40,000 nucleotides of DNA from Rhizobiaceae bacterium (GCA_016742175.1 JACVCH010000012.1:57023-97022); one strand, 5' to 3'. Numbered from the stretch's first letter, positions 1-18,922 are shown. Made by a program: numbers and translations. The notes: generated by a model from the sequence alone, not told the origin.

Positions 1-2031
1 GGCTATCTCGCCTCGCGCGACACGATCTTGACGCGGGCGCAACGCGTCTGGGTGATCGGCCACCGCGAGCAGAGCGACAATGAAATCAAGGGCGCCGTGA
101 TCGAGATGGTCGGCGCCTATCTAAATGCGGCCCGCTGGGGAGAAGATGGCCTGCGCAAACGCTTCGAGCGTCGGGGTGCCGACGCCGGGATCACCGGCTG
201 GTTGCCCGCCTGGCATGACGAAGAGCAGAACGACAAGGAAGCTGAAGCATTGGCAGCCTTCGGCTTTTCCCCGCGCGGACATGCGCTTTTTCCGTTCAAC
301 CATCTAGCGATTGAGCAACTCGTCCAGCAGCATCTGACCGTGGCCACTCGGCTCGTCTTCAACCCGCGTCGGGTGATCAACGAAATCCTGCGCCGTCCAC
401 TCCTTATGCGGGGCACGTTCGTCAGCGGGAATTTCCCGCCGCCTGAATTCCACGGGGTGCGTCCCAATGTCTATCTTGCGGGACTGATCCGGCAGACAAG
501 TCAACCTGAGCCCGTCAAGCGGCGCCTTGCTTCCGCGTTAGCCGTTTGGGCCGGCAATGCGGCGAATCATGCTGCGCTTTCCCATGTGTCGCCAGCGATC
601 TTCTCAACCTTTTCGCTGCCGACGCCGGCCGAACTCGCCAACGTGGTATTCGTACCCGAACAGACACCAGCAATTGAGCCCGCCAGACCGACGCGCTACG
701 AAGACGCGCCGCCCGCGCCGACGCCGCCAGTTGCGACCGAGCAGGATCCGCAGGTCGCGGCATGGTCTACCAAGCTTGATGCTTGGGCTAGTGGGATAGA
801 ACTTGTTCAGGCCGATGCGCGCGCACTTCGTAACGCCTTAGCGGATATGCTGAAGGGGGCAATCAATTGGCCGACGCTACGTCTCCCGGATCAAGCGATC
901 GACGCTCGCTCGCTCTGGATCGCCGGAGTCCGCAACAACCCTGTGGTCGGGCGAATCCTCGTCGTTTGTGACAGCCACGAGGACGAGGACGGCACGCTCC
1001 GCGAAGGCTTCCTCGGCGCGCTGAGGTTCGGCTTCAACGGTCATCGCTGGAACTACCCTGAGGCGGACATCGACTATGTCGCAAGCGCTGCCATTATAGA
1101 CCGTCTGCTCGTCCAGTTGACCCCGAAACTCGTTGCGGAAGCGAATGCGCAGACCGCGGTGATCGGGCGCGCTCTGCTCAATCAATCGCGCATTGTGGGT
1201 CTATCCCCTCCGATTCGCCCTGCCGGGGCCGAACCACTTCTACGCGGGCTTTTCTCGCCGCCGCCGCAGGTCGAGACGCAAGCATTCGAAGAAGGATGGG
1301 ACCAACTTCGCGCCCAAGCGACGGGGTCGGTCAACGGCAAGAGTCCGCGCGCGGTGCTGCAGGAACTCCTGCTCGACCGCAGCGCAAGTTTCCAAGGGAC
1401 GGGTAGCAAGCCCTTCGCGGTCGACAGCCCTCGCCTGCTGGACGCGCTTGCCAACGACCTGCCGGCAGGGTCGCTTCCGGAAGGTTTGCCGGACGAGGCG
1501 CGGACCTTCATCCCGACCATGACAGACGCGCGCATCTGGGGGAAACTGCAGGCAGTCATCTCCAAGCTTCGTGTCTTCCGCAGTGAGATTGCGGACTATA
1601 TCGACGAAAGCCTAGACAAGGGCGCCTTTGTTGCCGACCTGCGCGAGATCATCCCTTTATTGCAGAAAACAAACTGTTGGCCTGCCAATGTCGCAATTAA
1701 GCTCAGCGAGTTCGAAATTCGCCTGGCGGAGTTTCAGACCAGCCGTTTCGTAGATTTGGTGGAAAAGACGACGACCATCGTCGACGGGGCGGACCGTGAA
1801 CAGATCCCAAAGTTGCTCAACGCGCTTGGGTCACTCGACTTGGGGTTGATACAGCGCACCATGTCGTTTCTGACTATAGCTAATGAGATCGTGTCTCAAG
1901 CGGAGCCCCGCGTCGCACAGCAGGAGGCGGTTCGAGGTCAATCGGATCCCAGCGCTGTTGCGGCGGAGATCGCCAACCTGCTCGAGGGCCTCATCGAAAC
2001 GCCGCACATGGCAGCGGAGACGACAGTATGA
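1..2031 (+). CDS. Large hypothetical protein, 5'-truncated by the window edge; first visible gene of the helicase/PLD operon
   Basis: Frame 1 is open from nt 1 (GYLASRDTIL...), so the TTG at 28 in the ORF track is not a real start. Stop TGA 2029-2031 overlaps the next ATG (ATGA at 2028-2031). I recognise no catalytic motif by eye. Confidence 0.6.
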   Translation, partial: GYLASRDTILTRAQRVWVIGHREQSDNEIKGAVIEMVGAYLNAARWGEDGLRKRFERRGADAGITGWLPAWHDEEQNDKEAEALAAFGFSPRGHALFPFNHLAIEQLVQQHLTVATRLVFNPRRVINEILRRPLLMRGTFVSGNFPPPEFHGVRPNVYLAGLIRQTSQPEPVKRRLASALAVWAGNAANHAALSHVSPAIFSTFSLPTPAELANVVFVPEQTPAIEPARPTRYEDAPPAPTPPVATEQDPQVAAWSTKLDAWASGIELVQADARALRNALADMLKGAINWPTLRLPDQAIDARSLWIAGVRNNPVVGRILVVCDSHEDEDGTLREGFLGALRFGFNGHRWNYPEADIDYVASAAIIDRLLVQLTPKLVAEANAQTAVIGRALLNQSRIVGLSPPIRPAGAEPLLRGLFSPPPQVETQAFEEGWDQLRAQATGSVNGKSPRAVLQELLLDRSASFQGTGSKPFAVDSPRLLDALANDLPAGSLPEGLPDEARTFIPTMTDARIWGKLQAVISKLRVFRSEIADYIDESLDKGAFVADLREIIPLLQKTNCWPANVAIKLSEFEIRLAEFQTSRFVDLVEKTTTIVDGADREQIPKLLNALGSLDLGLIQRTMSFLTIANEIVSQAEPRVAQQEAVRGQSDPSAVAAEIANLLEGLIETPHMAAETTV

Positions 2032-2762
2032 GCAACTCACTTCCTGCTCGCGTCAGGGCGCTTCGCGAACGGTTGGTTGCTCTTGACCGGCTTGGTGCGA
2101 ATGTCGAGGAAACCGGGCTGCTTGAGGATCTGCGCTTGGACCTCTCGCCGCCCGCTTCCGAGCTTAACCGCGCCTTAGCCCAGCGCGCGCTGCTGATGGG
2201 GTCCGGTATCGAGACGCCAGAGCCGCCGACGCTCGAGACGGCACGAAAGCGAGCGGCGGCGCTGCTCGAGCGGTTCACCACGGAGCGGAAAGCGGCCACG
2301 CTAAAAAAGGGGACTGGATGGGCCAATCTGCTCAAGGAAACGAAGGCGGCCTCCGCCGATGTCTCTGTCTCGGTCATGCGCACTTGGAAAGGATATCGAC
2401 AGACCGTTTTTACCGGCGAGGCTCCAGCATTGGTGAAAGGCCGTATCGCCTTCACGCCGGCGAACAGTGCCGCGTACACGACCTATGAACAGCTCCACCA
2501 GACGTTTCGATCTGAATTTGAGAAACTCCCGGCGGACAAGGCCGCGATCGAACGAGTGAAGGCACTGGCGGCACGACTGACAGAGACGGCGAAAGAGTTC
2601 GATTTCGACGTTCCGGCGGACGTGAAGCGCTACCTCGAGGCCATTCAGAGCGGGGGAGCGAAGCTCGACCTTCTGACCGACGCGGTCCTCAAGTGGCTTA
2701 GAGAGAATGATGCCTTTGACAACTACCGCATCGTGCCGCGGAGCCCAGATGGAAGCCGATGA
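2028..2762 (+). CDS. Hypothetical 244-aa protein, helix-rich and charged, operonic with the helicase
   Basis: ATG 2028 overlaps the upstream stop. Its own stop at 2760-2762 lies 14 nt inside the helicase gene. No recognisable motif. Confidence 0.6.
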   Translation: MSNSLPARVRALRERLVALDRLGANVEETGLLEDLRLDLSPPASELNRALAQRALLMGSGIETPEPPTLETARKRAAALLERFTTERKAATLKKGTGWANLLKETKAASADVSVSVMRTWKGYRQTVFTGEAPALVKGRIAFTPANSAAYTTYEQLHQTFRSEFEKLPADKAAIERVKALAARLTETAKEFDFDVPADVKRYLEAIQSGGAKLDLLTDAVLKWLRENDAFDNYRIVPRSPDGSR

Positions 2763-5700: not shown

Positions 5701-7302
5701 ATTCGCTTCCGCGATGGCGGCTCGCTCGCCAAGGAGTTTCACTTCGAGGTCGGAGGAGAAGCTGTCGCGCTCGGGTTTAGTCTAGCGGTCGATGCTATGT
5801 GCATCCGCCTGCGGTTCCCCGACGCGTTGTGGTCGAACCTCGGAGCGGAGTCGGATCCGCGCTATCGGGCGATGCGCACGGCGCGCTTCCACCATCTTGC
5901 GTTGCATGGGCAGCTTGGCGAACACGTAGACAATCTGTTCGCACGCGAATGGCTAGCGCATCTGATGCTTGCAGCCCTCAGCAACGAATCGATGGCGCGT
6001 GGTATCTCGTTGCGGGAAGCAGCCGCACGGCTGGCGGACGGAAACGCAGAGTTCAGCCTCGATCAGACGCTCAACATCTTGTTTCAGTCCGCGGTTGTCG
6101 ATGATGCCAATGCCCAGGGCAACCAGCAGGACAAGTTGCGCCAAGATCTGGCCAGTTACGTCGCTGATCGGCAAGTGGTTGCCAGCCTGTTCGACTTAGC
6201 TGCCGTCCTTTGGACGCCTATCGATCCAAACTGGGAGCCATGGCTGCGCGAGCGATACGCTTCGACCGTCGGCGCGGCTGCGCTCAGCGCCATTTCAAGC
6301 CTTTGCCCGCAAATCGATAGCGACAGCCTCATCCTCGATGTGACAGCCGGCCCGCGCGAAGATGATGACGTGCTCGCCGGTATACCCAATGGCGAGATCT
6401 GGATTAGCGAGATGACGCCGGGCGGCAATGGGCAGATCGAGGTGGCGCAGAGTCAATATGTCGAGGATCCACGACGCTTCTTCAGCCTCATGACCGCAGC
6501 GTTGCGCGACAATGACTTCTCGCTCAGCGATTATCAACTGGGTCGCTTCCTCACCTCGGTCGTGGAGAGCGATAGCGCCGATCCGTTGCCGACTGCGGTG
6601 CGTGCGTTCCGAAGTGCCTCGGGCGCGGAGGAAAACCACGCGAGCTTTACCGCACTGCGTCACACGCTGGCGGAGGAAGGCTTTGTCACTTTTCACGCAT
6701 TCATAGTCGCGCTCGCCAATCGCATCCTCCGGCCCGGAACTAGCAGCGACAGCGACGCCTTCTTTCTCGACGCGATGCGCCTTTGGGATGCCGAGGAGGT
6801 GCGGCTCGGTATCGAACTGGATGCCCGCGTGCTCGCGCACCGTCTCGCGCGCTCCGACGACATCGATGCGGCGCTGGCTCTCTCCGGCATGGACCCGCCG
6901 ACAGTCGATCCGGGCCAGTGGCGCTTCGGCGTGATCTATGGACTGCTATGGCCGCGCGGCGCGCACATCCGGCAATCGGGCCTTCGACCCTATTCGCCAT
7001 TCGCCGATTTGCCATTGCCTGATCCGCTGCTGTTGCGGTCCTACTTGGCGGAGGATGCCGCGCTGATCGATGTCGAAGCGGAGGGCTGGCAGGAGCTTTG
7101 CCTCGACCGCCTTGCGGAGGTAGGCGCGGCGACGCTGATCTGCCGAATGGCGGCTTCATCGCTGCTGGCGGACGCGCTGAGCTTCCTGGCTACCAACCCC
7201 GCTCAGTCAGGCTATCTCTCGGTCTTTGCCCGGGTGCAGGCGGTGCGGCGGGTGGAGAACGCCTTCCATGTCGTACTCGATGTCCCGGAGGCGCTGCAAT
7301 GA
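2749..7302 (+). CDS. Very large SF2 DExH-box helicase (1517 aa) with an inserted Cys4 zinc-ribbon-like element and a ~900-aa C-terminal extension; DpdJ-like by context
   Basis: Motifs read in the translation: I AGTGSGKT (nt 3334-3357), Ia LYPRNELLKDQ, Ib TTTEML, II LLDEVH (DEVH nt 3919-3930), III LSAT, V VATASLEVGFN, VI QRKGRAGR. Cys cluster CEYLRCPSPEC...ECLGC at nt 3640-3741. Start moved to ATG 2749, downstream of ORF-track start 2707, to limit overlap with the upstream gene. Stop 7300-7302 overlaps the next ATG. Confidence 0.9.
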   Translation: MEADEALLLAVLDEIEQREARLLTWGLVDGHVSVGELHGIVNMLLDDPKINGGVSFADASQVMAGLTDRALLFDIGEEAGSQYRSRMAEGVRLLFRLRQLFPKHRGPIGWQAAPTLVADFRFIWRRRRYPRREIEAAASLAKIASATPDQAARAALSALIESYGPRFALAGFQVAAAARILGGFEGSRSTATLVSAGTGSGKTLAFYLPALSRAASHIQRDAVGERWVKVLALYPRNELLKDQFAEVYGQARRLDALLAGRGRRKLLIGTFFGPTPRSAEKAHEARSGWRQTSAGLICEYLRCPSPECVGDMAWRDADRRAGRERLECLGCSAAIESDEIILTRERLQREAPDILFTTTEMLNQRMGDDRFRHLFGIGERAQRPVEMMLLDEVHTYAGSSGAQVAFLLRRWRRLLRRHVSFVGLSATLKDGARFFAQLTGLYEQASVEITPRNSDMIAEGAEYLLALRGDPVSRTALLSTTIQTGMLLSRLLDAPDERKSQGIVGERVFLFTDDIDVTNRMYFAMLDAEGRRSSGAPDLANKPDGGLASLRRPLPVQHRKLHGQDWEAVVEIGHSLQPQDRKSVGRVMSMDPGVGNNLDIIVATASLEVGFNDPRVGAVIQHKAPRDVAQFLQRKGRAGRSRRMRPWTVAVLSDYGRDRLAYQGYDLLFDPELPLRTLPIGNRYVMRMQAVYATLDFLSQMLDSSRQGSVWLDLSTSTDSNYQRARQTALAGLIRRILTIPAELDRYTSYLASSLKIEEDAVAPLLWDHPRPLMTQVLPTALRRLESNWRAWGQPGEDHQVFNSPLPEFAPANLFSDLNVPEVDIVLPQPGSATPERVAMPIAQALREFAPGRVSRRYGISHAFERHWLCPALDQNREQAVPLESFARLERLGDWRVNVGGLLRQVPVYRPRVLEVQPPPGTLGDTSNARLRWRSQLVARDEGMVLDPPRGSPWTPLIEDVRFYSHEGLSPIEVRRLALGSDAGIRFRDGGSLAKEFHFEVGGEAVALGFSLAVDAMCIRLRFPDALWSNLGAESDPRYRAMRTARFHHLALHGQLGEHVDNLFAREWLAHLMLAALSNESMARGISLREAAARLADGNAEFSLDQTLNILFQSAVVDDANAQGNQQDKLRQDLASYVADRQVVASLFDLAAVLWTPIDPNWEPWLRERYASTVGAAALSAISSLCPQIDSDSLILDVTAGPREDDDVLAGIPNGEIWISEMTPGGNGQIEVAQSQYVEDPRRFFSLMTAALRDNDFSLSDYQLGRFLTSVVESDSADPLPTAVRAFRSASGAEENHASFTALRHTLAEEGFVTFHAFIVALANRILRPGTSSDSDAFFLDAMRLWDAEEVRLGIELDARVLAHRLARSDDIDAALALSGMDPPTVDPGQWRFGVIYGLLWPRGAHIRQSGLRPYSPFADLPLPDPLLLRSYLAEDAALIDVEAEGWQELCLDRLAEVGAATLICRMAASSLLADALSFLATNPAQSGYLSVFARVQAVRRVENAFHVVLDVPEALQ

Positions 7303-7838
7303 GTTTCGAGACAAGACGGATCTTCAAGAGCGCGGTGACCAGCCAGAATCTCATCCGCGAACTCCTCCAGATGATGTTTCTCGGGGAGCTTCTCGCCCCT
7401 GGCGGAGAGCGTGCCTGGCTGGTCAGCCCTTGGATCAGCAACGTGGTGCTGTTCGATAATCGTGCCGGCGGTTTGGGCTCGATCAATCCCGAGTGGGGCA
7501 ACCGCGAGATCAGATTGATCGAGGTCTTGACCGATGTCATGGCGCGCGGCACCTCGCTCGGTATCGCGACGAGCCTGGACGGTCACAACGATCCCCTCAT
7601 CGATGCGCTCGCCATGGCCGCAGATGAGGCGGGCCTGAACGATAAGTTGTGCGTCGTCCGACGTCAGCATCTTCACATCAAGGGCGTGCTGCTCAAACGA
7701 GGCCTGCTCACCGGCTCGATGAACCTCACGTACAACGGCCTCGAACTGAACGAAGAGATGGTGGTGTACGACACCACGCCAAAGACGCTCGCCGAAGCGC
7801 GGATCAACTTCGAATCCTACGTGGGCATGGGCGTATGA
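7299..7838 (+). CDS. Small single-domain phospholipase D/HKD-family nuclease-like protein (179 aa); DpdK-like by context
   Basis: HKD-type motif HIKGVLLKRGLLTGSMNLT (nt 7674-7724): HxK ... GSxN is present, but the canonical Asp position is Lys. Start is ATG 7299, in an ATGA overlap with the helicase stop. The ORF-track extension back to 7098 lies inside the helicase gene. Confidence 0.75.
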   Translation: MSFETRRIFKSAVTSQNLIRELLQMMFLGELLAPGGERAWLVSPWISNVVLFDNRAGGLGSINPEWGNREIRLIEVLTDVMARGTSLGIATSLDGHNDPLIDALAMAADEAGLNDKLCVVRRQHLHIKGVLLKRGLLTGSMNLTYNGLELNEEMVVYDTTPKTLAEARINFESYVGMGV

Positions 7839-10108
7839 TCGACCATTTGGCCGCGTGTGAGCAGAAGTGGCTGGAACGCTTCTTTACGTCGCCGAACGAG
7901 CTTAGCTGGACATCGCTCGTCGACGGGTCAGCGCCTGCAGACCAGGCAGACCAGGTTCGGCGGTGGCTCTCGCATCTCGGCGCCAAGCGAACCAACGCGC
8001 CGCTCGTTCTCCCATTTGTGCGCGGCGGAGAAGTTACGGGCTGGTATGCTACCACCCAGGGGCCGGCAGGCGGGTATGAGCTGAGGGATGAACTCAATGC
8101 TTGGCTCGGCCCCACTTGGCTGAGCCGCTTCGAGCGAGTCCCGGACGATGCTGCCGATCCGATGGCAACTGCGCTTCGCCGTCGCTTCGAGGGGACGATC
8201 TATCGCTTCACCGGCCCGGACGCCGCCGCCATGCGAACGATCACGGGTCGACTGAACGATTTTGCCGCGTTGCTTGAACTCAAGCCGAGCGCGCCGCGTG
8301 CGCTTATCCGCCCGGTCGGTGCGATACGGGGCGATTTCGAGCGAGCACTGCTGGCCGGCGATGAGGCACGGGCCCAGGCGATGATCGCCGAGTTGAAGCA
8401 GACAGGCCGCCTCAACGAGGAGAACCTCAAATTTCTCGAGGTTCGGCTGAGCGCTGGCCTGGGTTTTTGGCCGCAGATTGCGCGCGATCACTGGCTCATT
8501 AAGACCCTCGCGGAGCTTGCGGCTCCGCCGCAGATTGTCGCCGATCTCATCGAGGCGCTCTACCGAACTTATGTCGACGGCTCTGAGGCGAGCGGCGACC
8601 GGGCTGCGCTGCGGGAAGCCTTTTCCCTCCATGTCGCGACCCCCTATCCCAAGCTTTTTGCCTCCCGTCGCGGCATTCGCGCACCCCGGGTGGTCAAGGC
8701 ATTCGCGTTGTTTGAGCAGTTGCAGGCGAGCCCCGACCCGGCGATCGTCGCCTCGTTGCTCGCCTTATTGCCTGCGGGAACGGACACCGCGCTGTTCGAA
8801 ACGGCTCCTGTCCCAGAATCCAAGCCTGCAACTGTCACGACAATGGACGAGGCAGACGAAGCTTTTGACGACGGGCAGATCGATCGCGCTTTTGAATTTT
8901 ACCTGCGGTTGCCGCCGAGCAGAAAGACGATTAGCAGGTTGGTGTCCTGCGTAGGCTCGATCGGCACTGACGAGGCTCGGGATCGCCTGCTTGGGCTAGT
9001 TGAAGGTTCCAATCCGGCGGTTCTCGACTCCTTGGCACCCGCCGTTGCGACAAAGATCGAAAGCCTGAGGCAGTGGCAGACTGACGATGCTGCGCCCGCG
9101 CAACCTGCAGCCGAGGTAACACCCTGGTTGCGGTGGGCTGAGCAGTTGCAGGCGGGCCAAAATCTCGCCGCTGCCGAACGCGACGCGCAAACCGCTGCCA
9201 CAAGTTGGGATGCGTCGGCTGTAAGAGATAGCGGCAAACTCGCTCAACGTTTTGCCGATATCATCGGAGGTCTCGACGGCGAGGCCAGCGCTGTCAGTCG
9301 CACTGCGGTACCGCAAATCTTCGCAAGCTTCTTCCACGACGAGGACAAGGTGTCACCGGCCGCGAAGCCGATCGCATCCATGCTGTTTCTGTTGATCGCG
9401 ATGGATGATTTTCTTTCACGACCCGACCTGGACCTGATCGCCCGATTGACGACTTTGCTGATCGAGCAGGGATTGTCATCGTCCGAATACGTATCGCTGA
9501 TGGGTGATCTCGAAGATGTGCAGAAGCGGATAGGCTCCTACGCCTATCTGCCTTGGAGTCTGGACCTCAGCGAGGCGCTAGCTATCCTGCCATGCCCGTC
9601 AGACGACGCGCGCGACGCGCGGCTGAGACTCTTTCTGCAAGTACTCGGCCAGACTGCTAGCTTCGCCCATCGTCTGATGCCGGCCGATCTGCTGCCATTA
9701 GAGACGCTAACTAAAGACTACGGTGTCGGCGAGGAGGCTATCACGGCGCTAAGGCGAAGCGCGGAGGTGGTGGAGGCTGACGCACCATCCCCGCCCAGCC
9801 TTGGTGGGAAGACGATTGGCATCTACACACTCGCGGAGGCGGCCGGAATTCGCGCCAAGTCAGCTCTCGAGGCGCTGTTCCCAGGCTGCAAGGTGGTCAT
9901 GAATTCGGATCTAGTCGCAACTGCGCAACTTACGAGTCTAGCGAAGGCGGCCGATTTGTTCGTGTTCACCTGGAAGAGCAGCAGCCACCAAGCCTTCTAC
10001 TGCGTTAAAGATGCCTTGGCGGGCAAGGATCCGATCTGGGCGCCAGGCAAGGGAACAGCGAGCATCTTGCGAGCAGTCCTCGACCATCTTAGAGGCACCG
10101 GTGACTGA
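7835..10108 (+). CDS. Hypothetical 757-aa protein, last gene of the helicase/PLD operon; C-terminal ~100 aa resemble a DUF2325-type domain (from memory, unverified)
   Basis: ATG 7835 overlaps the PLD stop (ATGA 7835-7838); the ORF-track start 7649 would lie inside the PLD gene. The C-terminus ...KAADLFVFTWKSSSHQAFYCVKDAL... resembles the aDlvv..t..vsH.....vK pattern I recall for DUF2325. Confidence 0.6.
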   Translation: MIDHLAACEQKWLERFFTSPNELSWTSLVDGSAPADQADQVRRWLSHLGAKRTNAPLVLPFVRGGEVTGWYATTQGPAGGYELRDELNAWLGPTWLSRFERVPDDAADPMATALRRRFEGTIYRFTGPDAAAMRTITGRLNDFAALLELKPSAPRALIRPVGAIRGDFERALLAGDEARAQAMIAELKQTGRLNEENLKFLEVRLSAGLGFWPQIARDHWLIKTLAELAAPPQIVADLIEALYRTYVDGSEASGDRAALREAFSLHVATPYPKLFASRRGIRAPRVVKAFALFEQLQASPDPAIVASLLALLPAGTDTALFETAPVPESKPATVTTMDEADEAFDDGQIDRAFEFYLRLPPSRKTISRLVSCVGSIGTDEARDRLLGLVEGSNPAVLDSLAPAVATKIESLRQWQTDDAAPAQPAAEVTPWLRWAEQLQAGQNLAAAERDAQTAATSWDASAVRDSGKLAQRFADIIGGLDGEASAVSRTAVPQIFASFFHDEDKVSPAAKPIASMLFLLIAMDDFLSRPDLDLIARLTTLLIEQGLSSSEYVSLMGDLEDVQKRIGSYAYLPWSLDLSEALAILPCPSDDARDARLRLFLQVLGQTASFAHRLMPADLLPLETLTKDYGVGEEAITALRRSAEVVEADAPSPPSLGGKTIGIYTLAEAAGIRAKSALEALFPGCKVVMNSDLVATAQLTSLAKAADLFVFTWKSSSHQAFYCVKDALAGKDPIWAPGKGTASILRAVLDHLRGTGD

Positions 10109-10183
10109 GTTAGATCGAACAGGTATGACCACCGCTTGCCAATAGGGCCTATGCCACCTTGTGGCGTTCATAAATAGTGAACA

Positions 10184-10756
10184 TCAGGGCCTCAGATTCC
10201 ACACCCGATTGTCCCGCGATCGAACCCATGCGAGTACCGGCAGCGCCGCGACGACCATCCACAGTTTGCCAAGAACCTGACCCGGGAGAAGGTCGAGCCC
10301 CCCGAAAGCGAGGGTGAGAAAGACGATGCTATCGATGATTAAGCCTACGATACTGCTGGCGGTGGCAGCCAAGATCAAACCGCGACGCTGAAGCGGAGTG
10401 TATACTAGCAGATCTGCAACCTCCGACAGAGCGAAGGCTGCCGTTGAGGCGACGATCAGTGCCGGGGGTGCGAAAAATACAGATAGGATCGCCCCGATAG
10501 CGATGGCCGCAACCGACCAGGCGAGACCGAGCCGCCTTTGGACAAGATCGCGTAAGACAAGCGCTGCCCCGATGGCGAGGACCCCGCTTGGCGCGTAAAT
10601 TCCAGGCGCAACTGGGATGAGGCACGGACCATCTGGCACGCAGACTGTGCCCACATTTCCGATCATCCAATTGGCAAGCGGGATCGTGCATGCGAACGCC
10701 GCCAAGAATAAGCCACCCTCGATACGTTGCCTTCTATCAAGGTTACGCAATGGCAT
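10184..10756 (-). CDS. YhhQ/VUT-family membrane protein (queuosine-precursor transporter family)
   Basis: Polytopic hydrophobic protein. Segments align by eye to E. coli YhhQ: [24 protein letters not shown] vs ASFMAYALGQILDVHVFNRLRQ, and [20 protein letters not shown] vs ASTLFGNVSDTLAFFFIAF. Start is the internal ATG 10756, giving a 14-nt overlap with the queC stop at 10743. Confidence 0.7.
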
Positions 10757-11462
10757 TCTCCAGAGCCGCAGTGCGGAACTTTTCATATCCACGAGCGCGC
10801 AGATCACAAGCGGGACATTCGCCGCAGCCGCGCCCCCATTCGTTGATATGCTCGACGTCACCATTGTAGCAGGTCAACGTCCCATCCCGGATCAGTTCGA
10901 CGAGAGGAGCACCACCCAGTTTGTCTGCAAGCGACCACGTCTCAGCTTTGTTGATCCACATCAATGGCGTTTCCAAAACAAACCGGCTCTCCATGCCGAG
11001 ATTGAGGGCGACTTGCAGAGCTTTGATCGTGTCGTCCCGGCAGTCGGGATACCCGGAAAAATCTGTTTCGCAGACTCCGGTGACCACATGCTTCAGGCCT
11101 CGGCGATAAGCGACCGCTGCGGCGAAGGTAAGAAATAAGATGTTGCGGCCAGGCACAAACGTATTCGGCAGACCAGATGACATTGTCGCAATTTCAACTT
11201 CGCGCGTTAAGGCGGTATCGCTGATTTCGCCAAGCACAGCGAGATTGAGCACCCGATCGTCGCCAAGCCTCGCGGCCCATCCCGGGAAGGCTTTCGCCAG
11301 GCCGGCGCGGAATTCGATACGCGCATCGAGTTCCGCGCGGTGACGTTGTCCGTAGTCAAAGCCAATTGTCTCGACGCGGTCAAAGCGGTTCAGCGCCCAG
11401 ACGAGACACGTCGCGGAGTCTTGGCCGCCCGAGAAAAGTACGAGTGCACTGCTATCCGTCAT
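10743..11462 (-). CDS. queC: 7-cyano-7-deazaguanine (preQ0) synthase QueC
   Basis: N-terminal PP-loop [15 protein letters not shown] and C-terminal Zn motif [10 protein letters not shown]. Start ATG 11462 overlaps the queD stop (ATGA 11459-11462). The ORF-track N-terminal extension lies inside queD. Confidence 0.92.
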
Positions 11463-11833
11463 TGCGTGTTCTCGGAACCATAATAGCTGCAGGCGCCCGT
11501 GTCGCTGTCGCGGCGAACGGTGACCCGCCACAAGTTCGGACAGACCGGCGCGACTCTTTGCCAAATCCAAAATGACAGATTTTCGATCGTACTTGGACCA
11601 AGATCGGCAATCTCGTCCAAAAGGCGGTGATCAAGCCCATCGCGGGCCTCTTCGAGAGCTTGTTCAAAAAGCGCCAGGTCTACGATCATGCCGGTACGCG
11701 GATCTGGAAGACCGCGCACGGCGACTTCTGCTCGATAGGAATGTCCGTGAATGCGTCGGCTGGGCTCAACGTCCACAGTTCGTTGGAGCGTGTGAGCGGC
11801 GTCAAAACGAAATTCCCTGCTGAGTTCGTACAT
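11459..11833 (-). CDS. queD: 6-carboxy-5,6,7,8-tetrahydropterin synthase QueD
   Basis: 124 aa with FRFDAAH...RIHGHSY (PTPS/QueD metal-binding His motif). Start overlaps the queE stop by 1 nt (TAATG at 11831-11835). Confidence 0.9.
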
Positions 11834-12465
11834 TATCGAATGCCCATGAATTTGTGTGTTTGCAACGATAATCGCCAGCGCGGGTGCTGCAGGCAGTAGG
11901 CAATCGCTGCCGCAGTATTGGTCTCGCGCGCGATGTCATCGCGAGGTTGAAGAAAAAAATGTTCGAAAGCGAGATTTTCGAACGAAAGCGGGTCTACTCC
12001 TTCTTGGGGAAAGACCAGCTTCAACTCATTCCCTGAGGTTTGGATTAAGGGCGTTTCACCCTTGGGACTGACAGTAATCCAGTCGATCTTGGTCGGAGCG
12101 GGAAGCGATCCGTTGGTTTCAAGCGCAACCTCGAATCGAGCCGCATGAAGAGCCGAGACAAGCTCCTCTCCCACCTGCAAAAGCGGTTCGCCGCCGGTCA
12201 GAACCACGAACCGGTCTGTGTCTCCACCGCCCCACATCGCCTCGATGCCAGCCACAAGTGATTGAGCATCCACGAAGCGCCCGCCGCCGTCGCCATCGGT
12301 ACCGACGAAGTCCGTATCGCAAAACTTGCATGCTGCTGTCGCCCGATCACGCTCCCGCCCGCTCCACAGATTGCATCCGGCAAAACGACAGAATACAGCA
12401 GGGCGCCCCGTATGGCGTCCTTCGCCTTGAAGGGAATAGAACATTTCCTTGACGGCATAGGACAT
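11833..12465 (-). CDS. queE: 7-carboxy-7-deazaguanine synthase QueE (radical SAM, short Burkholderia-type)
   Basis: MSYAVKEMFYSLQGEG...CRFAGCNLWSGRE...CKFCDTDF...LQTHKFMGIR is near-collinear with my recollection of Burkholderia multivorans QueE. Start is the internal ATG 12465, 2 nt after the upstream stop at 12468-12470. Confidence 0.92.
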   Translation of the reverse strand: MSYAVKEMFYSLQGEGRHTGRPAVFCRFAGCNLWSGRERDRATAACKFCDTDFVGTDGDGGGRFVDAQSLVAGIEAMWGGGDTDRFVVLTGGEPLLQVGEELVSALHAARFEVALETNGSLPAPTKIDWITVSPKGETPLIQTSGNELKLVFPQEGVDPLSFENLAFEHFFLQPRDDIARETNTAAAIAYCLQHPRWRLSLQTHKFMGIR

Positions 12466-12467
12466 AC

Positions 12468-13556
12468 TCAGGCCGCCTTTTCGGTTTCGGCCAGGCGTCG
12501 CTTGAGCACCTGGACGAGATGAAAAGACAACTGGCGCACATCGGCCGGAACGTTCTGGAGCCCATTCCAACGCCGACGCTCTGCTCCAAATTCCCACTCG
12601 CCCGCGCTCCAGGCGGTTTTTCCTTTGAGCAATCGCAGACCAGCGGCGAACTCGTCCCGAGTCGAGGCGCCCGTGACGCTATTCAAAAAATCCATGACAT
12701 AGCCGAGAGCAATGATGCCGGTGCCATGGAGCAACCGAGATGACTTCGGTGTGTGTCCGATCCAATCCTCCGCGAAGACGTGCCGAACAGCGTGATAGAA
12801 TTCACTCATCGTGGTCACTCCCTTCTCCAGCAGGAGTTGATCCTCACCGGCGTAGAGGCGGAGCGTCCCGTCACTGAGGGAATTCATAATTACCCTTTGG
12901 AGGACGGTATCGCGGATGACGCCTTTGGGGTTTGTTTGCTGTTTGATCAGCCCTCTTAGTGAGGATCCTTCGCGATAGTTCAGCGCTTCAGTAACAAGAG
13001 CGGCTTGCGACCGACTTGACATTCTTGCCGGAAGATCTCCGACTTTAGGCAGAAGCTCATAAACAAGCGCTTTTGGCAGCGGGCGGGTGTTGTTGACCAA
13101 GATGAACTGCTTTTGAAGCTCCTCCTCGGTTTCGCAAAGAAAGCCCGAAACCAGCACCTCGAACTCGCGTTCGCGAAGTTCTGAAAGTGCTGTAAAGCGC
13201 TGTTGCCCATCCACGATCCAGCCGGGAGGGCCATTGGAGGTATCCACAACGAGTTGGTGAAGACGGCCCTCCGGACTCGTTGCTGGCTCCAGCCAGGCAC
13301 CGCCCATGAACGCGACCACGATGGCGTTCGGCAAGATCGCGTTTGGCTTTTCAAGGTAGTCGCGGATCTCGCGAATGTGGCCTGCAATTTGAGGCCTTTG
13401 AAAGCCTTGCAAGGTGCCGCCAGTATCTCGTCCCGCTCGCTCAATGCGAGCAATGCGCGCTACCTCGGAAGCTTTCGCCACGAACGTGAAAACTGCCAGC
13501 TTGTCGCTCTGGATCGGCGCAAGGGCGTCGAACCTAATATGGTGGGAATGGCTCAT
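12468..13556 (-). CDS. dpdB: DGQHR-domain (DndB/ParB-like) protein, DpdB-like, paralog 1
   Basis: Motifs LQGFQR, PNAIVVAF, WIVDGQQRFTAL, KQFILVNNTRPL. Start ATG 13556 overlaps the dpdA stop (ATGA 13553-13556). Confidence 0.75.
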   Translation of the reverse strand: MSHSHHIRFDALAPIQSDKLAVFTFVAKASEVARIARIERAGRDTGGTLQGFQRPQIAGHIREIRDYLEKPNAILPNAIVVAFMGGAWLEPATSPEGRLHQLVVDTSNGPPGWIVDGQQRFTALSELREREFEVLVSGFLCETEEELQKQFILVNNTRPLPKALVYELLPKVGDLPARMSSRSQAALVTEALNYREGSSLRGLIKQQTNPKGVIRDTVLQRVIMNSLSDGTLRLYAGEDQLLLEKGVTTMSEFYHAVRHVFAEDWIGHTPKSSRLLHGTGIIALGYVMDFLNSVTGASTRDEFAAGLRLLKGKTAWSAGEWEFGAERRRWNGLQNVPADVRQLSFHLVQVLKRRLAETEKAA

Positions 13557-14842
13557 ACAGTTTCCTGTCGAAATTCGGATAGGTGCGTGTGAAAGACGTG
13601 AAGGTTGTGAATGCCGCGGCGCTTGTTACGATTGGATGTTCGGAAAATTACTGCCTCAACACCGCTCTCCCGGCAAACCCTGCAACTGCAGTTGTCCCAA
13701 GGTCGATCGCCAAGGGTTTGCGCATAGGCTTTTCGCTGTCGCTTAACGGCATCAGCACGACGCCCGGGCGATGCCTCTTCGTCCCAGTTCAGAGCGGCCC
13801 AATAGTCCATCACACTATCAAGCGCCGGCTCCAAGGCCACGTTGCCATCAGCATAAGCCCGCACATGACGCAGGGCAGCGTCCTCGAGACGTCGCGCATC
13901 TTCCTGGTTGAGACTACCTTCCAGCGCCTTTTGCTTGAGCTTGTTGTTTTGAGTGGCCTGGGGAATGCGAATTGCCGTGTAGTAAGACAGGTCGCCGCCG
14001 GGCGTGCGCGCCCAATAATTCTTTCGGGCATCTTTAAACGCTCGCAAAAGAGGTGACGTCGTATCGAAGCTGGTTACTTTGAACCTGTCGAGCACGGCGA
14101 GTTCCTCGATCTTTCCAAAGCCCAAAAGGTGCAGCCGAACGTGCTCGGGGATTGCGTCCCGCAGGGCGCTTAAGACACGGCTGATTTGTTCAATCCTCAA
14201 AGGTACTGTGCCCCCAATCGCCAAGTAGTCGTAGCCCATATCCGCCAAGTTGCACGCCGCTTGTGCCATGCTTTCGGCAGACCATCCTTGGATGACGCCC
14301 ATCGGCGTGAACTGGGGTCCGAGTGCCTTCGCCGCTTTGTGGAACTCGCTAGCATTCTGGAGGGTAATTTCGTATCGCGAGCGCACATCCTCAGGAACGT
14401 CGCTCAAACGCCGCGTTACGCTTATGTCGTCGAAATCGAAGATAAGGTGATCCGGTGAGCATCCGTGCGTAAAGCCGCCGTCGGCGTAAAACTCGGCTGT
14501 GTCGTCCGCGTGGTAGGGTGGTTCCGGCAGATTGCGATACGAAAAGGCGCCGCAGTCACCCAGCATGATGCTCCCGGGGAATCGATCAAGGGGATACCGC
14601 AAGAATCGACGAGCGCCTTCTCGACGAAACCGCATGAGCTGCGCCTCAGAGTACTTCCCGGGGTGCCCAATGTCGCCGACGATGCCGCGAGATACCAGAA
14701 TCCCGTCATAAGGGGCCTGATCAAGGAACTCATGCGGGTACGCGTCGTCGCGATGGACCGCCCGGCCCTTGCCGTTTCGATCTTCAATGAAATCGTATTC
14801 GGGGTCGATAGTGTCGACGCTGTCGGCAAATACGAACCGCAT
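13553..14842 (-). CDS. dpdA: tRNA-guanine transglycosylase paralog, DNA-guanine transglycosylase DpdA-like (429 aa)
   Basis: TGT-fold signatures: GDCGAFSY, YLAIGGTVPL, and C-terminal Zn motif CSCRVC followed ~22-28 residues later by HNLHVFH. Sits between two DGQHR genes and upstream of queE/D/C. Start is the internal ATG 14842 (MRFVFADSVD...), a 1-nt TAATG overlap with the upstream stop. Confidence 0.85.
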   Translation of the reverse strand: MRFVFADSVDTIDPEYDFIEDRNGKGRAVHRDDAYPHEFLDQAPYDGILVSRGIVGDIGHPGKYSEAQLMRFRREGARRFLRYPLDRFPGSIMLGDCGAFSYRNLPEPPYHADDTAEFYADGGFTHGCSPDHLIFDFDDISVTRRLSDVPEDVRSRYEITLQNASEFHKAAKALGPQFTPMGVIQGWSAESMAQAACNLADMGYDYLAIGGTVPLRIEQISRVLSALRDAIPEHVRLHLLGFGKIEELAVLDRFKVTSFDTTSPLLRAFKDARKNYWARTPGGDLSYYTAIRIPQATQNNKLKQKALEGSLNQEDARRLEDAALRHVRAYADGNVALEPALDSVMDYWAALNWDEEASPGRRADAVKRQRKAYAQTLGDRPWDNCSCRVCRESGVEAVIFRTSNRNKRRGIHNLHVFHTHLSEFRQETV

Positions 14843-15981
14843 TACGCAACCTTCGCAAAGGCATGCATATGGTCGAGGCGCGCCAAATGACCGGATAACA
14901 TTTTGATGTCGCGTCCAACGTTTTGAATGTCGTTCCAGTCTCGCTGAAGTTCCGTCCACCTGCCTGTCGTCCAACGGCAATATGGAGCGATCCGTGACAG
15001 AGACTGTGTCGCGTGGAGGAGCAGGTCCGTCCCTGGCGCTGCACGCGACATGATCCGGTCCATCAAGAGGCTCATCGCCTCAATGCCCGCTGAGTGCATG
15101 AGTCGACTTTCTGTGGCTGGACGGCCCCACGCTTCCGGAAACACCGTGCGCACAGCGCTCCAGTAGGCGACAAGTGTGCGGTACATGGCATCAATGTCGG
15201 CGGGCGATTCTGCTGTCGCCTTGTATGGAGCAAGACAGCCAAGCGCACTGTTGATGCTGTTTCTGATCGCTTTGATCAAGGCCGAGTCCGTCACGACTGC
15301 AGTGGCAGAATCCTCGGACAGTCTCTTGATCAAGCCGAAGAACGGAGACTCTGCAGACGTTTGCAGGAGATTGACCAATTCACTGGGAATTTTCCGAGAC
15401 GAAAGGTCACGCGGGAAGGTGGTGTCCACCTCGGGGAGCAATTCGTTGATCAAGCGAGGATCAAGGGGCCTGGCCTTATTGACCAAGATGAATTGCTCAC
15501 GATGAACTGACAGTTCTTCCGATACGAAGGCAATAACAGGAACCGGGAAGGTTTTGTTCTGAGCCTGGGAAAGCGCGAGTGAGCGCTGCTGCCCATCAAC
15601 GATCCAGGCCGCCTTTGGACCATTGATGGGCAGGGGGATCCGCAGCGTCCCCGCTTCACAAGAGCGTACATCACCGCTCGGCCGTTCGCCCCGCGCCTGC
15701 GTAAAGCGCGCCCGGGGTGAAATGGCGAGAATGATAGCATTCGGGAAGAGCACGGGACCTTGATCTAAGAAATCTGTTATCGCTTGAACGTGACTCAGGA
15801 TTCCTTTGCGCTGAAATCCCTGCAGCCCTCCCTCGCTATCGCGGTGGACACGGCTAATTTCGGCAATTTTCAGCAGGTCAGCACCAGCCACAAAAAACGC
15901 GTAGACCGCTTTGTCCGCCTGTTCCGTGCGAACTGCCCGTACTGCGAGCGTAGGCTCCGCTGCTTTGCGCGGGCGTGTCAT
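14842..15981 (-). CDS. DGQHR-domain (DndB/ParB-like) protein, DpdB-like, paralog 2
   Basis: Same motif set as 12468-13556: LQGFQR, PNAIILAI, WIVDGQQRSLAL, EQFILVNKARPL, SRLMHSAGIEA. Start ATG 15981 overlaps the upstream stop (ATGA 15978-15981). Confidence 0.75.
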   Translation of the reverse strand: MTRPRKAAEPTLAVRAVRTEQADKAVYAFFVAGADLLKIAEISRVHRDSEGGLQGFQRKGILSHVQAITDFLDQGPVLFPNAIILAISPRARFTQARGERPSGDVRSCEAGTLRIPLPINGPKAAWIVDGQQRSLALSQAQNKTFPVPVIAFVSEELSVHREQFILVNKARPLDPRLINELLPEVDTTFPRDLSSRKIPSELVNLLQTSAESPFFGLIKRLSEDSATAVVTDSALIKAIRNSINSALGCLAPYKATAESPADIDAMYRTLVAYWSAVRTVFPEAWGRPATESRLMHSAGIEAMSLLMDRIMSRAAPGTDLLLHATQSLSRIAPYCRWTTGRWTELQRDWNDIQNVGRDIKMLSGHLARLDHMHAFAKVA

Positions 15982-16922
15982 GACAACTTCCTTTCGGTCA
16001 AAGCAGCTTGATAGAGCCGACTAAATCGCGCTTGCTCACAGGCAACTCCCTCTTCGTCCCGAAGCGCGCGCAAGATGCGGGCGACGCCTGTTTCGGTCTG
16101 GAGGCGAACCCCAATCAACTCAAGGATTTCCGCATCAGTCCGCCGCGGCCTAAGGGGTCTCGCAGGCGGTGTCACATTGTCTAAGGCGCTAACGACAGCC
16201 GCATGGTCAGCGTCACGGTCTTGATCATCATTGCCTGAGACCAGCCCTACAAAGTGATGCAGCGCCCGCTGAGAAAAGTCCGCCCGCGTCCCGGGACTGA
16301 TCGCGTCAAAACGCGCGTCGTAAGGCACGAGCGCCGGATGCAACGCTGCCGGCAGCACGGGAGCCAATGAAGCGCCAAATATTCGCAATCGCTTCAAAAC
16401 GTCCGGCCGCAGCGTACCGAGGCTCTCGCCCACCATTTGGGCATATGGACGTGTTAGCGCGATCAGAATACGCCCGGAGGCCGCGCCAACAACATCATCC
16501 CACTGATCCGACAGAGGAGACGATAGAAGACCAGAGAACCAAGCCGCTGCGTCGAATTCACCTCGGACTTTAGCTGCGACAGACTCCGCATGGCCAGAAG
16601 AGACCGTTAGCCCGTACGTTGGCACGTGGCGATCGGCAGGCACCAGACCCAACCCGGCCGAAAGCACGTAGAGCCTTGCCTTAGCGTTCTTTGCTGCCTT
16701 GACCGCCAGCGAGAACCCGCGCCCCGCATAAAGATCCGCCACAGCGATTTCCGCTGGCAGAGTCTGAACTTTCTTAATCCACGCAGCTTGGACTGCGTCC
16801 TGCGGGCCTGGTGGCAAAGCTGCCGGCGTCGAGCAGAACTGAGGTCGCGCTCTTTTTCGAAACGCACAGATTGTGATGATCACATCAACTTTCTTTGGTG
16901 TCGTTTCCCTTGGCGCGTTCAT
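15978..16922 (-). CDS. Hypothetical 314-aa protein, first gene of the modification operon (occupies a DpdC-like position; identity unverified)
   Basis: Long ORF translationally coupled to the next gene. Contains ...ARLYVLSAGLGLVPADRHVPTYGLTV..., reminiscent of the LSxxYGL...PY pattern of DUF328/DUF6884-type proteins. That comparison is from memory and is weak. Confidence 0.6.
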   Translation of the reverse strand: MNAPRETTPKKVDVIITICAFRKRARPQFCSTPAALPPGPQDAVQAAWIKKVQTLPAEIAVADLYAGRGFSLAVKAAKNAKARLYVLSAGLGLVPADRHVPTYGLTVSSGHAESVAAKVRGEFDAAAWFSGLLSSPLSDQWDDVVGAASGRILIALTRPYAQMVGESLGTLRPDVLKRLRIFGASLAPVLPAALHPALVPYDARFDAISPGTRADFSQRALHHFVGLVSGNDDQDRDADHAAVVSALDNVTPPARPLRPRRTDAEILELIGVRLQTETGVARILRALRDEEGVACEQARFSRLYQAALTERKLS

Positions 16923-17335
16923 TTTTCACCCAATAAATGCGCACTAGACACTTCCGACTGCACCGAAGAAATCGATAAGACCTCTACATATGGTGTACCG
17001 GAGTGTGCGCCCTACCACCTGTGTGCGCCATTTACGGTGCCGCTAGATAGCTACAGCAACAGTGAGGGTTTGGCAAAGGGGTGGTCGATAAATGCTATCC
17101 ACGCTGCACAGATTTTCGAAATGTCCGCAGTTATTGCATCCATTTTGAATCATCTTGCGCACTAATGCGTCCCTGGAAGCGTGCTTGACGAACTCTCTGC
17201 CAGTGTCGCAGGTGTCTCAAGCATGATGGACTCCATACGGCAGCCCTAAAATCGCACGGGTCCGCCTCCGCGTGGTGAGAATTGCGCAACTGCGGACAAC
17301 AGAGGGACTGCTCATTGTTGTGGGAGGACTGGCGT

Positions 17336-17400
17336 GGGGAGGCAAAGTCGCTTGGGTCCCTCCCCGTCGCAGGGGCGTCCCGCGGGGTGCGCGGAGCCCC
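17336..17400. repeat. GC-rich inverted-repeat block (two potential hairpins) inside an AT-richer spacer
   Basis: GGGGAGG (17336-17342) pairs with CCTCCCC (17359-17365). GGGGC (17372-17376) pairs with GCCCC (17396-17400), enclosing the palindrome CCCGCGGG (17379-17386). Confidence 0.4.
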
Positions 17401-17553
17401 GGTGTCTGATAGATTTCGTTTATCGTAGAGGGGCTCTTTAGGCGGAAAACCTAATTGCGTTCGCCCTCAGCTTACCTCTCTCAGAATCTCAGGCGATCCC
17501 CTCTCGACAATAGGAGTTCTTATTTTAGCCAGCGTCTGGGAGCGGATTTTGGG

Positions 17554-17873
17554 TGTCATCGCGGGTGTGACGCTGTGACGGGTAAATTAGCCGTGTCACA
17601 TTGCTTCTGTCACATCGTTCAACCAATTCATCTTATTGCGTTTTTTCCTTCAACATCTACTAAGTGTGACGAGTGTGACAGGGTTCTCTAAAGAATCAAA
17701 AATTAAGTTTTGGGGCGCTGCGGCAAGGCAGTGCCAGACCCTTTCCCGGAGTTCCTTCTTTGCTAAGGCAGGACGCCTGCAACCTGTCACAGCGTCACAG
17801 AGGTAGTTAAACATTGAACTTCCCAGAGGTTCGGAGTGTGACAAGAAGAGTGACAGGAATATTAGCCTGTCAC
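17554..17873. repeat. Array of ~11 TGTGAC/GTCACA hexamers in closely spaced pairs of alternating orientation (candidate protein-binding array)
   Basis: TGTGAC at 17566, 17574, 17665, 17674 and 17837, plus GTGACA at 17850. GTCACA at 17595, 17609, 17786 and 17794, GTCAC at 17869, and TGTCA at 17554. Pair spacing is 8-14 bp. About 0.2 copies of one hexamer would be expected by chance in 320 bp on both strands. Confidence 0.7.
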
Positions 17874-17879
17874 GTGCTG

Positions 17880-18476
17880 TCTACAGCAACTGCGCGGCAG
17901 AAGCCGCCCATCTGTTCGAGAAGATCAACCACAGACTGCTGACGCTGGATCGCGAGCGCTGTAGCCGCGAGGCATCTCCCACCGGCATCGATCATCGAGC
18001 AAGGGCATCAAGACCTGCGAGAGCGGCAGGCCGTGCGGCTATGACGAAGGCAAGAAGATCAAAGGCCGCAAGCGTCACGCGTTGGTCGAAACCGACGGTC
18101 GGGCGCTGGTGCTGTTCCCGCACCCTGCCAGCAGACCGGATCGCGACGGTGCGGGTCCGGTGCTGCAGGCCTCTCCGCGACCGTTTCCCTTTCCGCAAAG
18201 TCTTCGCAGACGCAGGCTATCAGGACCGCGCGTCGCGGAAGCCACCTCCATCGCCGTCGAGATCGTCAAGCGGAAGCCCGATCAGGTCGGCTTTGCCGTA
18301 CAGCCGAGGCGATAGGTGGTCGAACGCTTTTCGCCTGGATCAGCCGCAACCGAAGGCTCTGGAAGGACGCGGAGGCCACCATCGAATCCGCCACCGCATT
18401 CCTCTGCGCCCCAGCCGTCATGATCCTCGTCAGACGCATCGCGCGAACTCACGGGCAGTTTCGCCACGGACTCTAA
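17880..18476 (+). pseudogene. IS5-family (IS427/IS1031-like) transposase remnant, 5'-truncated, with a nonsense mutation and frameshifts
   Basis: Across frames the translation reads FEKINHRLLTLDRER..REASPT, GYDEGKKIKGRKRHALVETDGRALV, FADAGYQD, AVEIVKRKPDQVGFAVQPRR*VVERF and AWISRNRRLWKDAEATIESATAFL...LVRRIAR. TAG at 18313-18315 replaces the conserved Trp of PRRWVVERF. A 1-nt deletion lies near 18330. The N-terminal third is missing. Terminal stop at 18474-18476. Confidence 0.85.
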
Positions 18477-18630
18477 GGTATTAAGTCGGATCGAACAGAA
18501 GAGGCTTGCGTTCTGCTGAACAGGGGTCGAGCGCGCCTGAGTGGCCTCCATCAGGTCCTCGATAGCTGGGGTCGATACGAAGCGGTTCTTCGAACGCCGT
18601 TTTACCTTGTTGGTCCACTATAGCGGACAT

Positions 18631-18810
18631 TTATCTGCCTAGCTTCGAGCGACGCACAGCCTCGCTCAGCGCGCGACTTGTCGCCGTTTCGTCAGCCCCG
18701 ACATTGCCGCGCGAAAGGACGATATAGTTAGAGCGAAGACGTCGTGCCGACTCAATGGAGCCGAAAATCGTAAAGATGTTATCGATGGTGCGTGCGAGAT
18801 AGCGGTTCAT
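18631..18810 (-). CDS. Possible small protein (59 aa), unknown function
   Basis: Below the ORF-track cutoff. ATG 18810 is preceded by AGGAG with 5-nt spacing. Translation is MNRYLARTIDNIFTIFGSIESARRLRSNYIVLSRGNVGADETATSRALSEAVRRSKLGR. No homology recognised. Confidence 0.3.
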   Translation of the reverse strand: MNRYLARTIDNIFTIFGSIESARRLRSNYIVLSRGNVGADETATSRALSEAVRRSKLGR

Positions 18811-18922
18811 AGCGGCTCCTACTGTTGCGCCGCAATATATTCATTCTCGCACTGCACGCAACGATTGATCGGGTATGGGAGCACTGCGCCATTTGCGTAT
18901 CGCAATGTCGCGACGGATTGAT

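Follow-up and report, generated by a model that had tools for sequence, protein, structure and literature searches.

Analysis of a 40,000-nucleotide (nt) stretch of DNA from a Rhizobiaceae bacterium (GCA_016742175.1, JACVCH010000012.1:57023-97022; hereafter, the window) revealed that dpdA, the gene for the DNA guanine transglycosylase of the Dpd system, is bracketed by two dpdB genes, one upstream (dpdB_up) and one downstream (dpdB_dn). The window carries a complete Dpd island for 7-deazaguanine DNA modification and restriction, with dpdH cut by the window start. Our results indicated that, in the relatives sampled, the Dpd modification genes most often have this two-DpdB arrangement, of which the window is a typical member, and that both genes are very probably functional, ancient paralogs in a standard module. 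The finding refines what is known of the Dpd system and does not add a system of a new kind.

The 362- and 379-amino-acid (aa) products had been predicted to be diverged DpdB paralogs, and the comparisons confirmed it. The two proteins share 35% identity over 353 residues (BLASTP, E-value 4e-54), both score above the curated 300-bit cut-off of the DpdB equivalog NF041060, each spanning profile positions 1-352, and both match the PADLOC DpdB model PDLC02811 (431 bits for DpdB_up and 391 bits for DpdB_dn). All the motifs listed in the original prediction are present in both: LQGFQR, PNAI, WIVDGQQR, (E/K)QFILVN, ELLP and SRLMHSAGI / SRLLHGTGI. The VDGQQR motif, located at residues 128-133 of DpdB_up and 115-120 of DpdB_dn, is at least 90% conserved in the clades to which each copy belongs (described below), and the ParB-like NTPase signature is retained in the two proteins. 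The genomic context is also that of DpdB, since both genes abut dpdA and dpdC lies immediately upstream in the cluster. The closest named relatives of both proteins are from Mesorhizobium (88-90% identical), and at 69% identity or more each paralog has over 120 clusters (90%-identity), with organisms and contigs recurring across both lists. We also considered DndB proper, the phosphorothioation protein, which belongs to the same DGQHR/ParB-like superfamily but is described as a regulator and not as the cofactor of a base-exchange enzyme. Both proteins pass the gathering score of 29.1 of the Pfam DndB domain (PF14072) with 43.9 and 53.6 bits, and reach only 40 and 54 bits against the dnd-associated TIGR04172, whose cut-off is 450. 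No match to Dnd families was found among the open reading frames (ORFs) tested across ~1-25 kb of the window. This assignment was rejected because there are no dnd genes nearby and only the generic Pfam domain was matched.

The paralogs had also been said to flank dpdA immediately, with overlapping stops and starts, and this can be read directly from the DNA. The dpdB_up/dpdA junction is TAATG, in which the stop of dpdB_up (TAA) runs into the dpdA ATG at 14842, and the dpdA/dpdB_dn junction is ATGA, in which the dpdA stop overlaps the dpdB_dn ATG. The dpdC/dpdB_up junction is an ATGA overlap as well, and queE starts 2 nt past the dpdB_dn stop (TGAgtATG). A promoter and terminator scan of positions 9900-18900 predicted sites at less than the chance frequency and nothing inside the operon to separate one gene from the next. 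Given the overlapping junctions and the lack of internal promoter- or terminator-like signals above chance in that region, the modification genes look like a single translationally coupled operon with the minus-strand order dpdC, dpdB_up, dpdA, dpdB_dn, queE, queD, queC and the gene of a transporter for 7-cyano-7-deazaguanine (preQ0), as established by ORF listing and profile searches. The overlaps at either end of dpdA imply that it and its two dpdB neighbours are translated in a coupled way and in near-equimolar amounts.

To measure how common this layout is, we aligned 47 diverse DpdA sequences and used them as the query in a scan of GTDB in which each species was represented by one genome. 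A DpdA relative is encoded in at least 585 loci, of which we analysed the 80 closest, with DpdA identities from 73% down to 39%, calling the neighbours by a hidden Markov model (HMM) search for DpdB in six-frame ORFs. Intact DpdBs were found directly upstream and directly downstream of dpdA in 67 of the 80 loci; two more (L063 and L072) carry a frameshifted upstream DpdB, ten have the downstream DpdB only, and none has the upstream DpdB only. One locus (L075) was not evaluable, which leaves a DpdB on both sides of dpdA in 69 of 79. Two-copy loci are spread over Alpha-, Beta- and Gammaproteobacteria, Campylobacterota, Cyanobacteria, Actinomycetota, Myxococcota and others, and they include Comamonas testosteroni ATCC 11996 (L040), a species whose DNA is reported to carry these modifications. 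The dpdC gene is upstream in 78 of the 80 loci. As for the two frameshifted loci, the upstream DpdB of L063 (positions 5126-6249, a Scytonema metagenome-assembled genome, MAG) is split, and in L072 (5907-9255, Dankookia sp. P2) several dpd genes are. These splits are either pseudogenes or assembly errors; the latter are suspected in L072 because the frameshifts hit several genes.

The order dpdC-dpdB-dpdA-dpdB(-queE-queD-queC) of the window is identical in clusters of the Caulobacter sp. S6 plasmid, Sinorhizobium americanum CCGM7 plasmid B, Comamonas testosteroni ATCC 11996 and Mesorhizobium sp. LNJC405B00, and the same gene order was found in a Dechloromonas MAG and a Logan assembly. The proteins are 84-94% identical in the nearest relatives, and nothing essential differs from the window. 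In the RefSeq records of the Caulobacter and Sinorhizobium plasmids, the Prokaryotic Genome Annotation Pipeline (PGAP) already names both dpdA neighbours 'DGQHR domain-containing protein DpdB', and the GATOR-GC survey counted, without analysing them, 801 additional dpdB copies in 2,335 dpd islands (Nucleic Acids Research 2025, PMC12235509). The duplication is thus not a rarity. The possibility that duplicated DpdBs would prove common and already characterised was borne out in its first half: they are common and on record, but our literature searches, which did not reach the original 2016 dpd paper in PNAS, found no paper characterising the second copy. A 2016 review placed DpdB in 92% of the genomes with dpdA.

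The view that Dpd systems have one DpdB is right only for the enterobacterial type, which includes the studied system of Salmonella Montevideo. An Enterobacter cloacae plasmid carries a single DpdB after dpdA, as do 161 of the 5,426 complete E. coli genomes. Other layouts occur on more distant plasmids, from cyanobacteria and Paenibacillus, whose DpdAs are long (~690-715 aa); representatives of such long DpdAs are DpdC-DpdA fusions.

We then placed 168 DpdB-like sequences in a neighbour-joining tree, taking as outgroup the distant DGQHR proteins that these loci also encode. One pure clade held all 71 upstream copies (bootstrap 70-78%), and the monophyly of the downstream copies was weak (bootstrap 40-48%). 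Members of the up clade share 53% identity on average and those of the dn clade 48%, compared with 33% between the clades. The enterobacterial DpdB (L005), six other single DpdBs and three DpdA-DpdB fusions were 38% identical to the up type and 37% to the dn type, and the consensus positions of this single type are shared only with up in 28 cases and only with dn in 18. Because the singles are about equidistant and each paralog retains a different subset of their consensus, the data fit the duplication of a single ancestral, enterobacterial-like DpdB whose copies may then have specialised reciprocally; different subsets are the pattern expected when the gene of a homodimer duplicates and its copies specialise. 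The Salmonella-type DpdB looks like an unduplicated intermediate between up and dn.

The single DpdBs of Sphingomonas (L010-L013) and of L028 have another origin. They are dn-type, scoring ~510 with the dn-clade HMM and ~250 with the up-clade HMM, which indicates secondary loss of the upstream copy, with about two clear events (Sphingomonas and L028) among the 80 loci. In L010-L013 (Sphingomonas and Allosphingosinicella) the upstream DpdB is cleanly deleted, dpdC ends ~25-80 nt before dpdA, and dpdA and the downstream copy are intact; a sister Sphingomonas locus (L014) keeps both DpdBs. We looked in Sphingomonas for an accelerated evolution of the downstream copy after this loss and found none: its distance ratio to DpdA was 0.96-1.07, compared with 1.00 in the sister locus with both copies.

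Additional DpdB-like genes were observed in some loci. Four Pseudomonas loci encode a third, full-length DpdB with all the motifs, which is dn-type (~486 bits with the dn-clade HMM vs ~234 bits with the up-clade HMM) and groups in the tree with the single DpdB of L028. In ~20 of the 80 loci a distant DGQHR/DpdB-like protein of ~400-500 aa, with VDGQQR or VDGQHR, is encoded 3-6 kb from dpdA; these proteins score 31-91 bits with the DpdB HMM built here and 79-138 bits with the PADLOC DpdB model. Natural fusions were seen as well, both DpdA-DpdB (P0255, P0272 and P0275), whose DpdB domains are of the equidistant single type, and DpdC-DpdA (P0266 and P0283). An apparent DpdA-DpdB_dn fusion in L021, presented as one stop-to-stop ORF, was rejected by translation, since DpdA has its own stop codon and the downstream DpdB lies in another frame.

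Purifying selection acts strongly on both copies. Against the closest relative (L090; synonymous divergence, dS, ~0.8-1.1), the ratio of nonsynonymous to synonymous divergence (dN/dS) was 0.034 for dpdB_up, 0.028 for dpdB_dn, 0.070 for dpdA and 0.21 for dpdC; in this comparison no gene of the operon is under tighter constraint than the two dpdBs. Across 71 loci the pairwise divergences of the upstream copy, the downstream copy and DpdA were correlated (r = 0.91-0.96), with rate ratios of 0.94-1.03. The alignment has 49 positions at which the two clades share one residue with a conservation of at least 90%, and these cover LxGxQR, PN, VDGQQR, QFxxVN, ELLP and SRLxH; a further 39 conserved positions are specific to the up clade and 22 to the dn clade. 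Set against L090 and L091, the dpdC gene (15978-16922) changes much faster than the genes next to it, with 73% amino-acid identity vs 91-94% for dpdA and both dpdBs.

The DpdB of Salmonella Montevideo gives a reference for what these proteins may do. It is an ATPase needed for the DpdA-catalysed insertion of preQ0 and is stimulated by DpdA-DNA (Gedara et al. 2023, PMC10164549). It behaves as a homodimer by small-angle X-ray scattering and multi-angle light scattering, with a ParB-like N-terminal domain that contains DGQQR and C-terminal domains that enclose a DNA-sized tunnel (PMC10164549). The DGQQR motif highlighted in this protein is tied to nucleoside triphosphatase (NTPase) activity in SspE and is analogous to the GxxRxxA nucleotide-binding motif of ParB (PMC10164549). 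In the Salmonella system DpdC converts the preQ0 in DNA to 7-amido-7-deazaguanine (ADG). In vitro, it does not depend on DpdA or DpdB (PMC10164549). The window shares with the Salmonella module the DpdA, DpdB and DpdC families (by NCBIfam or PADLOC models), the DGQQR motif and a proline-containing interdomain linker, as well as the restriction genes dpdD and dpdH-K alongside; the order dpdC-dpdA-dpdB is seen in related Enterobacter and E. coli loci. It differs in that the one DpdB there is joined here by a second paralog between dpdC and dpdA, and in that the operon of the window includes queE, queD, queC and a VUT transporter gene.

The AlphaFold2 models (mean predicted local distance difference test score, pLDDT, 77.6 for DpdB_up and 84.7 for DpdB_dn) both have a ParB-like alpha/beta N-terminal domain, a low-confidence linker (residues 165-193 in DpdB_up and 169-176 in DpdB_dn) and a helical C-terminal domain. 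The Foldseek neighbours of both were ParB, SspE, sulfiredoxin and PadC, all of them weak (E-values 0.017-0.4), and the best match of the DpdB_dn model in the PDB was ParB 6SDK (probability 0.93, E-value 0.017). Searched by sequence, the PDB yielded no relative for either DpdB, and it offers no DpdB or DndB structure to compare with. ParB clamps (B. subtilis ParB, PDB 6SDK) and SspE thus recur as top structural neighbours of both models, and they are also reported as relatives of the Salmonella DpdB (PMC10164549). Differences exist too: by inspection, the EHxxP nuclease motif of SspE is absent from both translated DpdBs, as it is from the Salmonella DpdB; no ParB-type helix-turn-helix domain or parS context is evident here; and ParB is a CTPase whereas the Salmonella DpdB uses ATP.

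We tentatively favour a mechanism in which both DpdBs would be working ATPase partners of DpdA and a DpdB_up/DpdB_dn heteromer would replace the DpdB homodimer of Salmonella Montevideo. In the manner of ParB, the heteromer would clamp double-stranded DNA under the control of ATP, allowing DpdA to replace guanine with preQ0, and DpdC would then turn the inserted preQ0 into ADG. Co-expressed paralogs descended from a homomer often stay heteromers. We prefer the heteromer because the ancestral-like protein is a homodimer and the copies diverged reciprocally, and because the copies bracket dpdA with coupled translation, the situation in which homomer-derived, co-expressed paralogs are commonly heteromeric. 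The shared two-domain topology with a flexible linker also counts for the heteromer, as do the natural DpdA-DpdB fusions, which show a direct 1:1 association of the two proteins. The suggestion in the original prediction of a heteromeric DpdB pair, or of one paralog repurposed for another task, is in this sense plausible.

Several observations weigh against this mechanism. The structural matches to ParB and SspE, all with E-values above 0.001, would fit a ParB/SspE/sulfiredoxin fold and are not decisive. The upstream copy was cleanly lost in L010-L013 and L028 with the downstream copy intact and, in Sphingomonas, with no detectable change in its rate; the downstream copy is therefore apparently able to work without the upstream one. 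Complete NTPase motifs in both copies fit two independent homodimers equally well, the third, dn-type copy of some Pseudomonas loci complicates a simple 1:1 model, and the dn clade is too weakly monophyletic to fix the order of duplication and loss.

The strongest alternative, a serious one if somewhat less likely, is that the copies form two separate, specialised homodimers, with DpdB_dn as the canonical ATPase partner of DpdA and DpdB_up serving another step. The latter could be the recruitment or activation of DpdC on preQ0-containing DNA, the recognition of a second target motif, or a DndB-like, ATP-modulated regulation of the operon or of modification density. That the upstream copy can vanish while the downstream one persists unchanged agrees with this explanation, and so does the position of dpdB_dn just after dpdA, where the single enterobacterial DpdB is found. 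The fusions fit too, with DpdB C-terminal to DpdA in one kind and DpdC joined to DpdA in the other; of the top 150 DpdA representatives the 10 longest were scanned, and none has DpdB N-terminal to DpdA. They support a DpdA-DpdB contact on the downstream side and are silent on the upstream copy. The location of dpdB_up directly after dpdC, the larger number of clade-specific conserved positions in up than in dn (39 vs 22), and the description of its relative DndB as a regulatory DNA-binding protein point the same way. However, DpdC occurs in 68 loci that have the upstream copy and in 10 that lack it, so that presence and absence reveal no link between the two, in a test that cannot discriminate, and in Salmonella DpdC is independent of DpdA and DpdB in vitro. 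Moreover, DpdB_up outscores DpdB_dn against the curated DpdB model (444 vs 377 bits) and retains more of the single-type consensus (28 vs 18 positions), so it does not look repurposed or derived, and loss of the upstream copy is rare.

It is very improbable that the copies are redundant, that is, a tandem-like duplication kept for dosage with no distinct functions. They do share the same motifs and the same predicted fold, but they are only 33-35% identical, the upstream copies of many phyla group in a single clade, each copy is under strong constraint (dN/dS ~0.03) and each clade has conserved positions of its own; redundant copies would not be co-retained over such depth of divergence. That one copy is a degraded, non-functional duplicate, for which nothing in the window speaks and which only the two frameshifted upstream copies elsewhere recall, is excluded by the conservation data: both ORFs are intact, with all hallmark motifs, dN/dS values below that of dpdA, equal rates and the many related clusters of each.

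The heteromeric clamp can be taken further, to a more specific proposal that we regard as unlikely in its full form: in most Dpd systems the two ancient DpdB paralogs would serve DpdA as an obligate heterodimer and form an asymmetric ParB-like, ATP-gated clamp whose two nucleotide sites are not equivalent. The asymmetry would give DpdA its strand or site selectivity or couple the insertion by DpdA to the amidation by DpdC, and the Salmonella homodimer would be a simplified minority form. The published mechanistic work that we found on bacterial 7-deazaguanine DNA modification rests on Salmonella Montevideo, with its one homodimeric DpdB. Among the species-level genomes related to the window, in contrast, two DpdBs bracketing dpdA are the prevailing architecture, so that the model system is the minority form, and the second DpdB of the others is equally conserved. 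If the heteromer is real, it would show a ParB-family NTPase clamp that has become asymmetric in nature, and it could account for the choice of sparse target sites by DpdA; should the proteins act separately, one DpdB would have a further role in the pathway.

The remaining features of the window are those of a Dpd restriction-modification island, with dpdD, a partial dpdH and dpdI-K accompanying dpdA, the two dpdBs and dpdC. By ORF listing and profile searches, the plus-strand genes dpdH, dpdI, dpdJ, dpdK and dpdD converge on the modification operon; dpdE, dpdF and dpdG would be expected beyond the window start. Their coordinates, and those of the additional DpdB-like genes, are collected in Table 1.

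Table 1. Features of the Dpd island and of related loci. Coordinates refer to the window unless a locus is named.
Feature	Coordinates	Strand	Evidence or remark
dpdH, 3' part, cut by the window start	28..2031	+	NF041065 E 5e-118, profile positions 358-1012
dpdI	2028..2762	+	NF041066 E 5e-34, below cut-off
dpdJ, helicase-like, 1531 aa	2707..7302	+	NF041067 1850 bits
dpdK, phospholipase D (PLD)-like, start approximate	7314..7838	+	NF041068 194 bits, residues 73-241 of ORF 7098-7838
dpdD, start inferred at the ATG of 'MIDHL'	7835..10108	+	NF041061 619 bits, from residue 75 of ORF 7649-10108
VUT/YhhQ-family queuosine-precursor transporter	10184..10864	-	Pfam Vut_1; TIGR00697 below cut-off; L004 homologue annotated VUT family
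queC, 7-cyano-7-deazaguanine synthase	10743..11465	-	TIGR00364 207 bits; Pfam QueC
queD, 6-carboxytetrahydropterin synthase	11459..11833	-	Pfam PTPS 99 bits; TIGR03367 and TIGR00039 below cut-offs
queE, 7-carboxy-7-deazaguanine synthase	11833..12465	-	TIGR04508 338 bits
dpdB_dn (downstream DpdB), 362 aa	12468..13556	-	NF041060 377.1 bits
dpdA, DNA guanine transglycosylase, 429 aa, start ATG 'MRFVF'	13553..14842	-	NF041059 531 bits
dpdB_up (upstream DpdB), 379 aa	14842..15981	-	NF041060 444.3 bits; member of the up clade
dpdC, 314 aa, DUF6884/DUF328-like	15978..16922	-	PADLOC DpdC PDLC02815 E 1e-77; Pfam DUF6884
Truncated IS5-family transposase fragment	17912..18477	not assigned	blastn 84% identity to a Rhizobium etli IS5 gene, 29% query coverage
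Third DpdB of Pseudomonas loci	L044:3722-4783, L045:2399-3460, L046:3722-4783, L050:3723-4784	-	Divergently transcribed, upstream of dpdC
Distant DGQHR proteins (examples)	L006:13257-14468, L022:11893-13002, L016:11889-12893, L029:11885-12895	-, +, -, +

The real start of the transporter gene is probably near 10753, because its homologues are 188 aa long. The inferred start of dpdD appears to overlap the dpdK stop (7835-7838), and dpdD is separated from the transporter gene by ~75 nt (10108-10184) at the point where the restriction and modification operons converge; the promoter and terminator scan gave no hairpin of the terminator type in this interval.

Upstream of dpdC lies a gene-poor gap of ~2 kb (16923-18922), whose small ORFs (16.9-18.9 kb) had no Pfam match and which contains the IS5 fragment; it is probably the edge of the dpd island. 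The G+C content of the window reaches its minimum here (0.54 at 17001-18000), is 0.565-0.58 in the dpd operon and 0.60-0.65 in the flanks. The low G+C of the operon, together with the truncated IS5 fragment, suggests that the island was horizontally acquired.

Finally, we compared the preQ0-synthesis genes of the window (10743-12465) with those of Mesorhizobium sp. LNJC405B00 (L091:9520-11237). QueE, QueD and QueC are 65%, 38% and 62% identical, respectively, next to dpd genes that are 84-89% identical. The low identity of the que genes beside the high identity of the dpd genes suggests that the preQ0-synthesis cassette was replaced separately from the dpd core.

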